Position numbers and translations under genes: made by a program | Sequence record: PZ242158.1 | Strand: one strand, 5' to 3' | DNA length: 64,000 bases | Source of the DNA: a phage | Notes under the pieces: generated by a model | The model's input: the letters and a program-made list of their open reading frames with translations, nothing else | Database searches by the model: none | What the model was told of the DNA's origin: nothing | Shown here: piece after piece, positions 34,136-38,630 of the stretch | Layout: each line of letters starts with the position of its first letter | How positions within the stretch are numbered: the stretch's first letter is position 1

Positions 34136-34309
34136 TGTTGCACCCCCTCTTCATCTTCATGATGTTTCTTTTCACGCTTGTGTTTTTTCTTAAGCTCAAG
34201 CGCAATCTCTTTCTTGTACGCCTTCTTCAAGGCTTTTTTAGCCATTTGGCACCTCCTCTGCTTTCATTTTACGATAATTATACCTATCTAAACAAAGCTT
34301 TGTCAACAA

Positions 34310-34783
34310 CTAGTCTACCTGAACCCAACCGCCTGATACTTTTTTAAACATTCTTTGGTTATCACTGCCTCGGAACGGTTTCTTGGTTGGTAAATCTTTT
34401 ACATACTTACCGTCAATGATGATATCAGCCAGTTTAAGAACATCACTAGAGATATGGTCAAATGTGAACCCAGTATATACAAGAATAGTTTTCTTGTCAC
34501 CAAATTTTTCCTTAATTTTCTCCATCAGGCTAATAATACCTGGCTCATTATAGTATGCTAAGGGTTCTCCACCCAGCAGAGAGATACCGCACACAGACGG
34601 GTTATCCAGATCTGACAAGATTTTTTGCAAATCTTCTTCAGTGAACTCCCTCCCCTTATCTTTTGACCAAAATGCCTGATTAAAGCAACCAGGGCAAGCG
34701 TGTGGGCACCCAGATACCCACAAGGCAGTTCTAATACCTGGCCCTTCTGTGTAAGATACTTCTGTGTATCCGACAATGTTCAT
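34310..34783 (-). CDS. nrdG: anaerobic ribonucleotide reductase activating protein (radical SAM)
   Basis: GCPHACPGC cysteine cluster; size and position next to nrdD. Confidence 0.8.
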   Translation of the reverse strand: MNIVGYTEVSYTEGPGIRTALWVSGCPHACPGCFNQAFWSKDKGREFTEEDLQKILSDLDNPSVCGISLLGGEPLAYYNEPGIISLMEKIKEKFGDKKTILVYTGFTFDHISSDVLKLADIIIDGKYVKDLPTKKPFRGSDNQRMFKKVSGGWVQVD

Positions 34784-34896
34784 AGATACTCCGTATCACA
34801 TTCAGGGCAATGCCAAATAAAATCGTCCAGTGCCTTGCACCAACGAAGATTGCAACGACAACCACACTTGCAAATTTTATAAATGCCTGATGACAT
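34780..34896 (-). CDS. small Cys-rich zinc-ribbon protein (38 aa)
   Basis: AAGGAGGTG RBS; CKCGCRC..WC..HCPEC; stop overlaps nrdG start (ATGA); below ORF-track size cutoff. Confidence 0.45.
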   Translation of the reverse strand: MSSGIYKICKCGCRCNLRWCKALDDFIWHCPECDTEYL

Positions 34897-34944
34897 GCTG
34901 CACCTCCTTTAGTTTATAACATGTTTAAAGGTTGATATATGGCT

Positions 34945-35937
34945 CTACAGGTTATTACCTGTCCTATGTTTACAACAAATCTCTCTATGCGCTGATTCTA
35001 CCATACTGAACACTTCAGGTCTGTAGTTAAAGAATTCGGTACTACCATCAAATTTTACAGGGAAGTTTATTTTATATTTACTGAAGGCTTTGTGCATAGA
35101 TTTTTCTACAGCCAGCATGTTTTCAGTTGATCCTTCCAACGTTTTCACTATGTGAAGATCGCGGATACCAGCTCCAGATCTTTGTGCACTTTTAAGTATC
35201 TGGTCTCTTCGCTTACTTTCATTATGACTGACCCCTATTTTCATAAATGTAGGTACTTCTGGATCATCAACCATAATGTAGAGTTTTCCGTTATCGTGTG
35301 ATAAAAATCCTGTTTTAGCGCATCTAGGGCAAGCATGTCCCTGCTTAAGACTGCTTGGTACGGTTAACCATGTGTGGCTACAACCTTTACAGCAGCACAG
35401 GACTTTCTTATCCCACCCAATAATTTCTTCCAATATCTCAACATAAGGATTTCTACTTCTTATGGACTCAACCCACTTTTCGTGTGGTGATGTTTTACTT
35501 TGTGAGATTCTTGACCCCTTGCAAACTGGACAACCTCTTTTCAAATTTATATGGTTATCAGGTGTCTGTGTAAAGTGATTTCCACAAGTGTTGCAGATTA
35601 TTTCTACCCTGTCTTTGCAAGTCTTGTAGTATACGAGAGAGTAGTCATATTTATCTCCATGGATTTCTTTGGCCCTTTCTACAAATTTAAGACCTTTATT
35701 ACACTTTGCAGCACGAGAAAGTTTTGCACAAAAAGGACAACCACGACCTTGCAAGTGTTTACAAGGTGCTTGCATAAAATCCCCATGGATTTGGCAGGTA
35801 ATGCAAACCTTCGCATAGCAATCCACGTACACTGTTTTCGTGTAATCGTATTTATAACCGTGAATGATTTTCGCCTTCTCTATAAACTCTTCTGTTGATA
35901 ATTTAGCCATTTCTTGTTTCCTAACTTCCCTAAACAT
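34945..35937 (-). CDS. free-standing homing-endonuclease-like protein (three zinc-ribbon repeats plus C-terminal T5orf172/GIY-YIG-like domain)
   Basis: Repeated HG.KYDYS...C..HG.F...P..H..G.GCP.C units; C-terminal YIMVDD..KIGVSHN. Confidence 0.5.
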   Translation of the reverse strand: MFREVRKQEMAKLSTEEFIEKAKIIHGYKYDYTKTVYVDCYAKVCITCQIHGDFMQAPCKHLQGRGCPFCAKLSRAAKCNKGLKFVERAKEIHGDKYDYSLVYYKTCKDRVEIICNTCGNHFTQTPDNHINLKRGCPVCKGSRISQSKTSPHEKWVESIRSRNPYVEILEEIIGWDKKVLCCCKGCSHTWLTVPSSLKQGHACPRCAKTGFLSHDNGKLYIMVDDPEVPTFMKIGVSHNESKRRDQILKSAQRSGAGIRDLHIVKTLEGSTENMLAVEKSMHKAFSKYKINFPVKFDGSTEFFNYRPEVFSMVESAHREICCKHRTGNNL

Positions 35938-35974
35938 CTGTATAGTGCCACATCCTTGTGGCTTTTGTCAAGTA

Positions 35975-37207
35975 TCAGCAACCACAACTTCCGTAGTGCT
36001 TAACTCGCTCGATAACTTCCGCTTGCTTACCTTTATTGTAAGGACGGGAGTTAGGACTGGAAAGATATCCAGACACTCTTCGGATCACTGAGATATATTG
36101 TTCATCGTGGCATCCGCACGCAGGGCAGCAGAACCCTTTAGCTGTTGCACTGAACTCACCAGAGAAACCACACTTGAGACATTTATCCACAGGTTGGTTA
36201 ATACCAAAATACATAATATGTTTATACCCGAAGTCAACAAGAGCCTCTAAAGCATCCAGGTTGTTTTTCAGGTTAGGTGTCTCTACGTATCCAATGTTGC
36301 CACCAGAGGAGATCATAGCAAAACCTTCCTCATACTCCCACTTATCAAAAGGAGAGCTATTTATCCACACTGGCTGATGGAAACTGTTGGTGAGATATTC
36401 ATGCTCGTGCTTCAACACTTCCGGGTATTCACGATCCAGACAGGTTGCAGCTTTATAGCATAGACTCTCAGAAGGAGTGCCGTACAAGCTAAATGCTAGT
36501 CTACTTTCCTTCTTGTATCGCTCACAAGCATCTCTCATGTGCTGAAGGATTCCAAGAGCTAAAGCCTTGTCACCCTCTCTGCCCAAAATCTGACAGGTTT
36601 CATACACACCAATATACCCAATACTGATGGAAGCGTACCCGTCATAGAAGAGTTTATCAATACTCTCTTCAGGATCCAGGCGAGCAAGAGCGCCTTCACA
36701 CCACATGATGGGGTTCTGCCCTGCCTTTGTTCCTTTTAGACGGTTAACCCTTACAAGGTGAGCCTCATATGCAAGATCCAAGTATTCGTCAAGAACTGCA
36801 AAGAAATCAACACCTTCCGTCTTAGCTTTTGCCGCAATCATTGGCAGGTTAAGGCTAACAACGCCTAAGTTAAATCTGCCAAGGTATTTCTCCTCGCCTG
36901 TTTCCAAGTCATTGTATTTGCTAAGAAAACTCCTGCAACCCATGCTAGTTACTTTGCCATCTGTCGAGCCTGTCACTTTTCTATTTAGTGGTACAGATAC
37001 GAAGTCAGGATAGATACGTTCTGCACAGCATTCCAGAGCTAATCGTTTCAAATCATAGTTAGGATCCCCAGGGTTCATGTTGACACCCTCTTCCAGGAAG
37101 AACAGCACTTTAGGGAACACAGGTGTGATACGTTCTTCACCAAGACCCATTTTGTGGACTTTCAAGTAATTTTTGGTAATCATTCTACCAAAGACCGAAG
37201 TGTCCAA
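35975..37207 (-). CDS. nrdD: anaerobic ribonucleoside-triphosphate reductase, C-terminal exon (glycyl-radical domain); true 5' boundary is the intron 3' splice site
   Basis: Zn site CPACGC and glycyl radical motif RRVSGYL near C-terminus. Confidence 0.8.
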   Translation of the reverse strand: MDTSVFGRMITKNYLKVHKMGLGEERITPVFPKVLFFLEEGVNMNPGDPNYDLKRLALECCAERIYPDFVSVPLNRKVTGSTDGKVTSMGCRSFLSKYNDLETGEEKYLGRFNLGVVSLNLPMIAAKAKTEGVDFFAVLDEYLDLAYEAHLVRVNRLKGTKAGQNPIMWCEGALARLDPEESIDKLFYDGYASISIGYIGVYETCQILGREGDKALALGILQHMRDACERYKKESRLAFSLYGTPSESLCYKAATCLDREYPEVLKHEHEYLTNSFHQPVWINSSPFDKWEYEEGFAMISSGGNIGYVETPNLKNNLDALEALVDFGYKHIMYFGINQPVDKCLKCGFSGEFSATAKGFCCPACGCHDEQYISVIRRVSGYLSSPNSRPYNKGKQAEVIERVKHYGSCGC

Positions 37208-37491
37208 ACCTAAACTTAATGTGATAAAAGGGGTTTGCGGTCCCCACCCTTATGTTTCCACAAGGCCAGACTATCTCTTGCCTGAAATCACACCGTGTGA
37301 TTCTTAATCAGACCCCTGCGTTTCGGAATCTTCCATAATCCCTACACCAAAAGGTTAGTCGTTACAACCGCCTCACTCCTTGTGAAGCTAGTCACGGGAT
37401 TGGCATAGCTTTCGCCTTAGCGTTCCCCGTTAGCCAGCGATCAGCTGACCCCTCATACTGAGGTTAGCAGAGTTTTAAAACGGCCAGTTTG
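37208..37491 (-). ncRNA. putative ORF-less group I intron interrupting nrdD
   Basis: About 280 nt separate two nrdD halves; contains R-like element ACGACTAA (P7 5' strand, plus coords about 37352-37368) and S-like element AAGAGATAGTCTGG (P7 3' strand, about 37265-37278); exon 2 frame reads ..GPQTPFITLSLG.. only after the intervening segment. Confidence 0.55.
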
Positions 37492-38355
37492 TTAACCGTT
37501 TACCGAGGTTAGTGTGTTGATCTGATAAAGCAACGTCTGCATGCTGTCAAACACGTCTTTATCTGTCATTTGCATTGCAACAGTTTCAGCATCCGGCAAC
37601 CAATGTTCCTGGCAAAATTTAAGGTTCTTCTCATAGGTTGCTTCAGCATACTGTGCCAGATAATGATCAATATGGCTCATAGTCTGACCACCATATTGAG
37701 CACTAGCTACCGCGCTAGAGATTTGACTAAGGATTGTTGTTGCAACCCCTATTGACTTCGGCTTACTGACATGGGCGTTGCCAATGTTGAATCCGTTTTC
37801 CAACATATCTGGATAATTTACCAAACAACAGTTTGTTAACGGACTGATCAAGTAGTCAAGATCATGCACATGGATGAAGCCTTTATTGTGCTCTTCTGAA
37901 ACACGGTCTGGCAGGATCTGTGTTGATGCAAGGTGTTTGCTAAGGATGCCTGCAAGCAGGTCACGATGAGTGTGTACATGATTAGTGGGCTTATTTGCGT
38001 TTTCTTTTGTAAATTCATCACAAGTTCGATCCAAGAAGCCACTAATATCTGCAAGCAGTTTTCCACCTGCCTCTCTGTTATTATCTCTTGTCTGTCTATA
38101 CTGGATGTATTCTCTGGCTGCACATTTTAAACCCATATCCATAAGAGCATCTTCAACAAGGATATGGATATTTTTTACAGAGATCGTGCACTGGTCGGTT
38201 GGTAGATTGTTAGCAACAACTTCATTAACCGCGCAGGCGATCCGGTAAGCTTCTTCTTCAGTATGTCCAGACTCAAGTAAGGCGGACTCTGCCGCCTTGA
38301 TCACCTTAATTCCGTTATAGAACTCTTCTCTACCGTCCCGTTTTACAACTTTCAC
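37492..38355 (-). CDS. nrdD: anaerobic ribonucleoside-triphosphate reductase, N-terminal exon (ATP-cone)
   Basis: MKVVKRDGREEFY.. ATP-cone start; annotated stop lies inside putative intron. Confidence 0.8.
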   Translation of the reverse strand: MKVVKRDGREEFYNGIKVIKAAESALLESGHTEEEAYRIACAVNEVVANNLPTDQCTISVKNIHILVEDALMDMGLKCAAREYIQYRQTRDNNREAGGKLLADISGFLDRTCDEFTKENANKPTNHVHTHRDLLAGILSKHLASTQILPDRVSEEHNKGFIHVHDLDYLISPLTNCCLVNYPDMLENGFNIGNAHVSKPKSIGVATTILSQISSAVASAQYGGQTMSHIDHYLAQYAEATYEKNLKFCQEHWLPDAETVAMQMTDKDVFDSMQTLLYQINTLTSVNG

Positions 38356-38630
38356 TTTTTCTCTCCAAAACCATTCTTAACAAAAGAGATGAAATCGTCG
38401 GCACCGCCTATATGGACACTTTCAAGATTGCTTTCTAAGAAGATCTGCGGCAACGTTCTGGGGACAATTGGACTGCACTTCTCAATAAGCTCTTCTTTTG
38501 TGTAGCCCTCGCCAAGTGTCTTATATACAAAAGGCAGACCTTTGCTGATTGCAAATTCTTTTGCTCTGACACAATGTGGGCAGTTATCCTTACCGTAAAT
38601 GATGATGAAAAAAGATTTTTCGCAGCTCAT
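38352..38630 (-). CDS. glutaredoxin/thioredoxin-like protein (NrdC/NrdH-like)
   Basis: CPHC active-site motif in 92-aa protein adjacent to nrd genes. Confidence 0.7.
   Translation of the reverse strand: MSCEKSFFIIIYGKDNCPHCVRAKEFAISKGLPFVYKTLGEGYTKEELIEKCSPIVPRTLPQIFLESNLESVHIGGADDFISFVKNGFGEKK

Follow-up and report, generated by a model that had tools for sequence, protein, structure and literature searches.

The stretch of phage DNA analysed here, the window, is 64,000 nucleotides (nt) long (record PZ242158.1), and this report concerns the two reading frames that lie in it between nrdD, the gene of the anaerobic (class III) ribonucleotide reductase, and nrdG, the gene of its activase: an open reading frame (ORF) of 330 amino acids (aa) for an endonuclease and a cysteine-rich ORF of 38 aa, the mini-ORF. 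All genes of the nrd region are on the minus strand, namely nrdA, nrdB, the glutaredoxin gene, nrdD, the 330-aa ORF, the 38-aa ORF and nrdG (Table 1). The closest record is that of Escherichia phage nom (MN850646), an rV5-like myovirus of the genus Vequintavirus, with 99.7% identity across 4.5 kb, and 122 phage records match the nrd region at 90% identity or more. A preliminary description of this DNA had placed the 38-aa ORF with its strong ribosome-binding site AAGGAGGTG between nrdG and the endonuclease gene, and it is present there as described.

Table 1. Features of the nrd region, in positions of the window unless another sequence is named
Feature	Position	Strand	Basis or remark
Glutaredoxin gene	38352-38630	-	
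nrdD exon 1, ATP-cone and N-terminal part of NRDD	37496-38355	-	Pfam; boundary from comparison with nimi
Intron in nrdD, probably of group I, 257 nt, ORF-less	37239-37495	-	Absent from nimi nrdD; Rfam sub-threshold
nrdD exon 2, glycyl-radical domain and C-terminal zinc ribbon	35975-37238	-	Pfam NRDD E=1.7e-105, Gly_radical
Hairpin GCCACA-AGGA-UGUGGC, -9.3 kcal/mol	35947-35962	-	Just 3' of the nrdD stop
T5orf172-type (GIY-YIG superfamily) homing-endonuclease gene (HEG), free-standing	34945-35937	-	Pfam, PHROG, indel
Three tandem zinc-ribbon repeats (DUF723/DUF4379, CapR-like), ~aa 13-72, 82-141, 152-208	35314-35901	-	
T5orf172 nuclease domain, aa 219-309; motifs LYIM, MKIGVS, R243, E278, GSTEFF	35011-35283	-	
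Shine-Dalgarno sequence AAGGAGGTG of the mini-ORF, 4 nt before the ATG	34901-34909	-	Read from the sequence
Mini-ORF, 38 aa, seven invariant Cys, PHROG 20137	34780-34896	-	
nrdG, 157-aa radical-SAM activase of anaerobic (class III) ribonucleotide reductase	34310-34783	-	Fer4_12 E=9.5e-43, Radical_SAM, phrog_626
Perfect sigma-70 promoter, 12/12 (TTGACA, 18 nt, TATAAT)	34277-34306	-	Immediately downstream of the nrdG stop
Podovirus mini-ORF copies	ACG-C91 L004 3998-4108; L006 and L007 5001-5111		

The endonuclease gene and its insertion site

The 330-aa protein matches the Pfam families T5orf172 (PF10544; 27.2 bits against a cut-off of 20, E=5.7e-6), MUG113 (PF13455; 22.6 bits against a cut-off of 22.3) and DUF4379 ("treble clef zinc finger", E=7e-7) as well as phrog_681, "endonuclease" (E=8e-55). 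Its 2,681 homologues at E<=1e-10 are named GIY-YIG nuclease, DUF723 or zinc-ribbon in their sources and carry PF10544, PF14311 and PF05265 according to precomputed annotation. The three zinc-ribbon repeats are seen in the sequence, in the alignment (conserved CxxC...CPxC) and in an AF2 model built from an alignment of 30 family members (mean pLDDT 85). The nuclease domain has a GIY-YIG-type fold, and the DUF723/DUF4379 repeats are presumed to be the DNA-binding module. The sequence thus identifies the protein as a T5orf172-type endonuclease of the GIY-YIG superfamily with zinc-ribbon repeats, and Pfam and alignment agree with the three repeats and the T5orf172/GIY-YIG-like C-terminus proposed in the preliminary description; its start is to be amended, because the homologues and the GenBank record of nom begin at Met10 (ATG at 35910, 321 aa), which is the likelier start. 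Across the 30 aligned members, Y220, K233, G235, E278, G298, E301, F303 and several zinc-ribbon cysteines are invariant and R243 is nearly so. Since the window protein has every invariant residue, it is not an endonuclease that lacks its catalytic residues, the finding that the preliminary description had named as speaking against it. The expected catalytic core is complete (strand-1 Tyr, strand-2 KIG, helix-1 Arg, distal Glu), with the catalytic roles assigned by analogy.

Compared with HeinrichReichert (MZ501073), the HEG and its short flanks form a single clean indel of net +1015 nt. The cassette of ~1.0 kb takes the place of the 22 nt that otherwise separate the hairpin 3' of nrdD from the ribosome-binding site of the mini-ORF, and the hairpin is 77 nt from the mini-ORF core in nine HEG-less sequences as against 1,092 nt in the window. 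The junction from nrdD through the mini-ORF to nrdG is uninterrupted in 68 of 120 records. A HEG more than 95% identical to that of the window occurs in only two of 50,697 phage records, nom and WalterGehring, which differ from each other in nrdG allele and intron content despite their near-identical HEGs. Other phages have a paralog of the HEG in the same spacer, one that is 52% identical to it in A51.2 and A147 and one of 386 aa that is 44% identical in SophiaRose, and a single intergenic spacer of one genus is thereby home to at least three diverged members of the family. A rare, clean indel together with diverged paralogs in one spacer is what a mobile homing-endonuclease gene would be expected to show, and the sporadic presence at a fixed site beside a conserved gene is that by which homing endonucleases are recognised. 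The earlier proposal that a mobile endonuclease has invaded the nrd operon is in this way borne out.

The protein might instead be a domesticated or decaying relative of such enzymes, acting as a DNA-binding regulator or as an anti-competitor nuclease like CapR or Odn (ICP1/PLE). T5orf172 and CapR-type domains have indeed been co-opted in other systems (PMC10448857; see also PMC8096241 and PMC8263062), and no target site could be defined at the locus. The complete nuclease domain, with all the residues that are invariant in the family, argues against domestication, and so do the sporadic occurrence in a single intergenic position beside an essential gene and the near-identical copies in the otherwise different backgrounds of nom and WalterGehring; sporadic presence and near-identical copies in two backgrounds are the signature of recent mobility. 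We therefore regard domestication or decay as improbable.

As a selfish element, the HEG would be expressed by read-through of the nrd transcript, which is probable because no promoter of its own was found: between nrdD and nrdG there is no convincing sigma-70 site for either the HEG or the mini-ORF. The position of the perfect promoter right behind nrdG suggests that one upstream transcription unit, made up of nrdD, the HEG, the mini-ORF and nrdG, ends there. By analogy with other members of its class, the enzyme would cut HEG-less genomes near the nrdD/mini-ORF junction in a mixed infection, and recombinational repair would then copy the HEG in and drag flanking sequence along. Two sites around the start of the mini-ORF set the HEG-plus genomes apart: relative to the ATG, position -2 is C in both of them and T in all nine HEG-less sequences, and the codon of Gly4 is GGC as against GGT. 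These differences are a hint to the homing site, in which two related genomes cannot separate co-conversion from target immunity.

The hairpin behind nrdD (6 bp, AGGA loop) is the left boundary of every insertion at the nrdD/mini-ORF spacer. As a candidate for a HEG-specific regulatory element it was rejected: it occurs in HEG-plus and HEG-minus genomes alike, HEG-less genomes carrying the same hairpin, and it thus belongs to the 3' region of nrdD and not to the HEG.

The intron of nrdD, next to which the endonuclease had been said to lie, is real and probably of group I. The 257-nt block is precisely missing from the uninterrupted nrdD of phage nimi, which defines the bounds of the intron, and the records of relatives annotate nrdD as a spliced coding sequence (CDS); the Rfam model Intron_gpI scores 29.3 bits (E=1.2e-4), under its gathering score of 50. 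The intron is polymorphic, being absent from nimi, ORF-less in the window and host to a 177-aa putative homing endonuclease in WalterGehring (L003 4963-5496). In a divergent clade (nrdD regions of L010 and L011), nrdD is broken into two to three pieces by ORFs with an HNH_3 domain. The sigma-70 promoter downstream of nrdG is in the same place as promoter P118 annotated in rV5, and the nrdG of phage nom (MN850646, L001 1611-2084) and of relatives is mislabelled "putative minor capsid protein".

The mini-ORF: conservation, distribution and family

The product of the mini-ORF is MSSGIYKICKCGCRCNLRWCKALDDFIWHCPECDTEYL (38 aa), which matches phrog_20137 over 38 of 38 positions (E=2e-30). Upstream of the frame, AGGAGGTGCAG is kept in HEG-plus and HEG-minus relatives, and downstream its TGA overlaps the ATG of nrdG as ATGA. 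Tblastn finds the mini-ORF in ~120 Vequintavirus records. The analysis of selection drew on isolates and metagenomes, which gave 12 distinct nucleotide versions. Variable sites are concentrated in third codon positions (20, compared with nine in first and four in second positions), and the frame of the mini-ORF is the only one open in all 12 versions. The ratio of nonsynonymous to synonymous substitution rates (dN/dS, Nei-Gojobori) lies between 0.01 and 0.2 in 53 of the 55 pairs whose dS is defined, and the two exceptional pairs, at 0.30 and 0.65, rest on just 5-6 substitutions each. Between clades, synonymous sites are saturated while the peptide is 80-93% identical, and C9, C11, C13, C15, C20, C30 and C33 are invariant along with the stretch NLRW...LDD.IW.CP.C. 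In a divergent vequinta-like clade (L005, L010, L011), the core of the mini-protein is 86-93% identical to that of the window, compared with 77-89% for NrdD exon 2 and 49-55% for NrdG; by these identities, the mini-protein is more conserved than NrdG. To judge from its substitution pattern, the mini-ORF is a genuine protein-coding gene under strong purifying selection. Conservation across related phages, on which the preliminary description had made the gene depend, is thus found in ~120 records, and the mini-ORF is not the unconserved frame that would have told against it.

A function of the DNA other than coding, either as a leader or spacer for ribosomes bound for nrdG or as a homing target or recombination site, is in our estimate very unlikely. 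It would agree with the overlap of the stop with a downstream start in both of the phage families in which the mini-ORF occurs (see below) and with the recombination or insertion junctions that flank the mini-ORF on both sides. It does not account for saturated synonymous sites, low dN/dS and seven invariant cysteines, nor for the mini-ORF of rV5-type phages, which is coupled to no nrdG start and yet equally conserved.

The divergent metagenomic clade (L005 6001-6162; L011 6001-6165; L028 2461-2625) encodes a form of 53-54 aa, which is extended at its N-terminus by a Lys/Glu-rich segment (MASKAKAKKEKQEEKEEGF...) and whose first knuckle is a canonical CxxCG. In the titles and abstracts of the papers returned by a literature search, no gene-expression data for Vequintavirus phages were apparent.

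The preliminary description had called the mini-gene unlisted. This is true of the closest record, nom, which leaves it out, but not of many relatives, in which it is annotated as a hypothetical protein (e.g. bas58_0182). Some records label it "anaerobic ribonucleoside-triphosphate reductase", and phrog_20137 seems to owe its label "ribonucleotide reductase" to nothing but adjacency. In the rV5 record (DQ832317; L020 936-1163), the annotated ORF114 runs over the DNA of the mini-ORF in another frame. The gene identified here therefore corrects a missing annotation in nom, a wrong frame in rV5 and a label based on adjacency.

The mini-protein belongs to an orphan family. It has no match in Pfam or PADLOC and nothing under E=0.1 in NCBIfam, and the best hit of a sequence-profile search of the PDB is not significant (E=0.68). 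An exhaustive profile search of 1.84e9 representative proteins returned only 41- and 54-aa variants of the family and two spurious repeat proteins. Scans with degenerate back-translated DNA patterns of IMG/VR, the JGI metagenomes and GTDB (185,579 prokaryotic genomes) gave only Vequintavirus-type contexts and one podovirus type, and tblastn at E<=10 found the mini-ORF in no phage group beyond Vequintavirus and the podovirus copy. By blastn there is no copy in 5,426 complete E. coli genomes. Tblastn over plasmids gave a single match, CP057073 (137,565 bp), in which the mini-ORF adjoins nrdG; with its Vequintavirus length and this gene pair, the "plasmid" is probably a phage genome. About 18 records of "Campylobacter phage" (host C. 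jejuni; MG065635-MG065690 range), mostly of 135-143 kb, match the nrd region at 93-94%. They and the E. coli "plasmid" CP057073.1 are probably mislabelled or contaminant sequences.

The preliminary description had called the mini-ORF zinc-ribbon-like, and as far as the cysteine pattern goes this stands: the knuckle and the invariant (I)W-x-CPxC resemble a zinc ribbon at pattern level. A match to a curated family does not accompany it, as there is no hit to a hidden Markov model (HMM). The longer variants have the canonical CxxCG first knuckle, from which the 38-aa form has lost a residue (CxCG), and the nearest weak matches are the ribosomal ribbons eL43 and eS26. The pattern suggests that the mini-protein probably binds metal and is zinc-ribbon-like. 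A stand-alone copy of a zinc-ribbon repeat of the HEG, in the manner of a CapR-like domestication, was considered and rejected (hhalign probability 3.5%).

The mini-gene, the reductase and a podovirus copy

The preliminary description had further stated that the mini-ORF is translationally coupled to nrdG. The ATGA overlap is there, but the arrangement is not a fixed one. Between about a third and half of Vequintavirus (rV5, WalterGehring, A51.2 and others) carry an nrdG allele only ~53% identical to that of the window (34310-34783, compared with L003 1609-2082, L016 2501-2974 and L020 1502-1975), with one or two further small ORFs ahead of it (rV5 ORF115 and ORF116; phrog_3249). With this allele, the mini-ORF ends in TAA and is uncoupled from nrdG, and its protein differs by 1-3 residues. 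Among these alleles, co-variation of the mini-protein with NrdG was not seen; its sequence is near-unchanged with either partner. Homology between genomes with the one nrdG allele and those with the other breaks off precisely with the stop codon of the mini-ORF. In a podovirus, the downstream neighbour is a ligase gene. Coupling to nrdG is hence a local arrangement and not a fixed functional link.

The podovirus in question is ACG-C91 (Vectrevirus, Autographiviridae), which, like two metagenomic podovirus contigs, carries a copy of the mini-ORF that is ~80% identical. This copy lies between a nucleotide kinase gene (DUF3310) and the gene of an ATP-dependent DNA ligase, onto which it overlaps as ATGA, with no phage nrd genes and no radical-SAM neighbour. 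Nucleotide homology between the myovirus and podovirus versions begins at the start codon of the mini-ORF and ends 8 nt beyond its stop. Such boundaries of homology show the transfer of a precise single-ORF cassette between phage families. The slot between kinase and ligase in Vectrevirus is a cassette site with variable contents: K1E has an unrelated 38-aa CxxC...CxxC protein there (L021 799-915; sub-threshold match to Lar restriction alleviation, E=3.7e-4) and vB_EcoP_B an unrelated 57-aa protein without cysteines (L022 799-972), and in ACG-C91, K1E and vB_EcoP_B alike the annotated CDS of the cassette overlaps the CDS of the ligase by 4 nt.

Could the mini-protein be a dedicated accessory of the class III reductase, rubredoxin- or desulforedoxin-like, that feeds electrons or metal to NrdG or stabilises NrdD? 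Its gene directly follows nrdD in all Vequintavirus-type genomes and contigs and, in the layout met most often, overlaps nrdG; its core is no less conserved than NrdD, and a cysteine-rich CPxC motif fits a metal centre; the podovirus could in principle pair the mini-protein with the NrdDG of its host. The distribution of the mini-ORF is not that of a reductase component, which would occur with nrdD and nrdG everywhere and nowhere else. In phi92, whose NrdG is of the next-closest group, nrdD and nrdG overlap directly and there is no mini-ORF, and it is also absent from the other NrdDG-encoding phages sampled (Felixounavirus, KVP40, STP4-a). Judged by Pfam, in which they have no match, the genes next to nrdG in Felixounavirus, KVP40, a Gelderlandvirus and an Enterobacter phage are unrelated hypothetical ones, where there are any. 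The mini-protein stays the same when nrdG is swapped and when inserted ORFs uncouple the two, and the podovirus copy is coupled to a DNA ligase. In phage nimi (MN850626; L019 2501-2614), a nonsense allele ends the mini-ORF at codon 9, the position of the first invariant cysteine. The reductase is, moreover, provided for in itself, NrdD having a C-terminal CxxC...CxxC ribbon and NrdG a CxxxCxxC motif of its own. The evidence leans against an obligatory reductase subunit, which the mini-protein probably is not, and we hold the role of a dedicated accessory to be doubtful. Nimi combines the premature stop with an intron-less nrdD.

The neighbouring radical-SAM gene also brings to mind a ribosomally synthesised and post-translationally modified peptide (RiPP), that is, a SCIFF- or ranthipeptide-like precursor modified by the adjacent enzyme, as a small cysteine-rich ORF lies directly upstream of a radical-SAM gene. 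The context effectively refutes this: the neighbour is a typical 157-aa NrdG (Fer4_12, phrog_626) without a SPASM domain, the podovirus copy adjoins a DNA ligase with no such enzyme next to it, and the peptide has no leader/core architecture.

The nrdG allele swap, the absence from phi92, the stop in nimi and the podovirus copy indicate that the mini-ORF is a self-contained accessory cassette. Taken with the mobility of the endonuclease gene, we consider it probable that two independent elements share the interval between nrdD and nrdG, a selfish HEG and an accessory mini-gene whose product is proposed to bind metal. The mini-ORF would be translated from its own strong Shine-Dalgarno sequence, and where its stop overlaps the start of nrdG, ribosomes that terminate there can re-initiate and may do so on nrdG. 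The peptide would fold around a metal held by its cysteines and might, as we propose with low confidence, have as its target a host factor or some widely conserved component of nucleotide or DNA metabolism that is common to infections of E. coli.

Several points weigh against two independent elements of this kind. No Vequintavirus-type genome seen, metagenomic ones included, has the mini-ORF anywhere but directly behind nrdD, a constancy that is unexpected for a purely unrelated passenger and would agree with a link to NrdD or to the anaerobic supply of deoxynucleoside triphosphates (dNTPs). The stop in nimi could be a sequencing error as well as a natural knockout. Metal binding is read from the cysteine pattern, the AF2 model of the mini-protein is unreliable (pLDDT 60), and no homologue with a known function emerged from the searches run.

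One may go further and see in the seven-cysteine family a new and very narrow group of metal-binding accessories that move between unrelated coliphages, the Vequintavirus myoviruses and Vectrevirus podoviruses, as an exact one-ORF cassette directly upstream of a gene of nucleotide or DNA metabolism, whose start overlaps their stop, and that either act on a host target in dNTP or DNA metabolism or boost anaerobic dNTP synthesis via NrdD. In this specific form the proposal is unlikely to be correct. In T7, the gene just ahead of that of the ligase encodes gp1.2, an inhibitor of the host dGTPase. By analogy, a host target of the mini-protein might be a dNTP-depleting or nucleic-acid-targeting factor that it neutralises, as T7 gp1.2 does.

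Significance and comparison with known systems

The mini-protein is a very small, strongly constrained orphan that crossed phage families, and if it is true that it modulates host nucleotide metabolism or defence, or the anaerobic ribonucleotide reductase (RNR), it would be a new small phage effector. It is readily testable, as a peptide of 38 aa for which a natural nonsense allele exists. The HEG adds a further case of a T5orf172 homing endonuclease at a junction of RNR genes, useful for the annotation and mosaicism of therapeutic rV5-like phages and in itself unsurprising.

Generic zinc-ribbon mini-proteins of the eL43/eS26 type differ from the mini-protein, which has three extra invariant cysteines and a CxC first knuckle and gives no significant HMM or structure match. 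The ligase-slot genes of K1E and vB_EcoP_B share with the mini-ORF of ACG-C91 their position, a similar size and ATGA coupling, but no sequence relation, and the K1E protein, although it too is a ribbon, has four cysteines, unlike the seven-cysteine mini-protein.

For the HEG, solved nucleases with a GIY-YIG domain are distant relatives: Slx1, the catalytic domain of I-TevI, R.Eco29kI, T4 EndoII and the N-terminal domain of UvrC are 10-17% identical to it, its second motif is the T5orf172-typical KIG in place of YIG, and its DNA-binding module is unrelated to theirs. The closest precedent for its location is T4, in which mobC, a free-standing HNH endonuclease gene, lies between nrdG and nrdD, and mobE between nrdA and nrdB (PMC2988022). 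Like the window HEG, mobC is a free-standing cassette between anaerobic RNR genes; it has no promoter and is read through from the operon (PMC2988022), as the window HEG probably is. The two belong to different nuclease families, HNH in the one case and T5orf172/GIY-YIG in the other, and to different phage lineages, and it is the arrangement that they share, not ancestry.

The closest precedent for its architecture is the class of T5orf172 nucleases with repeated CapR/DUF723-type zinc fingers already described in ICP1, T5-like and other phages (Barth, Dunham and Seed 2023; PMC10448857), in which N-terminal zinc ribbons arranged as "beads on a string" precede a C-terminal T5orf172 domain, as they do in the window protein. 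One third of the T5orf172 nuclease neighbourhoods contain ribonucleotide reductase genes, and the nucleases are located at boundaries of genetic exchange (PMC10448857). The window HEG is likewise free-standing, stands beside ribonucleotide reductase genes and marks such a boundary. Unlike the examples of that work, it occupies the spacer between nrdD and the mini-ORF of Vequintavirus, where it is known from its sequence. The endonuclease is thus an ordinary addition to a described class, at a location for which there is precedent.

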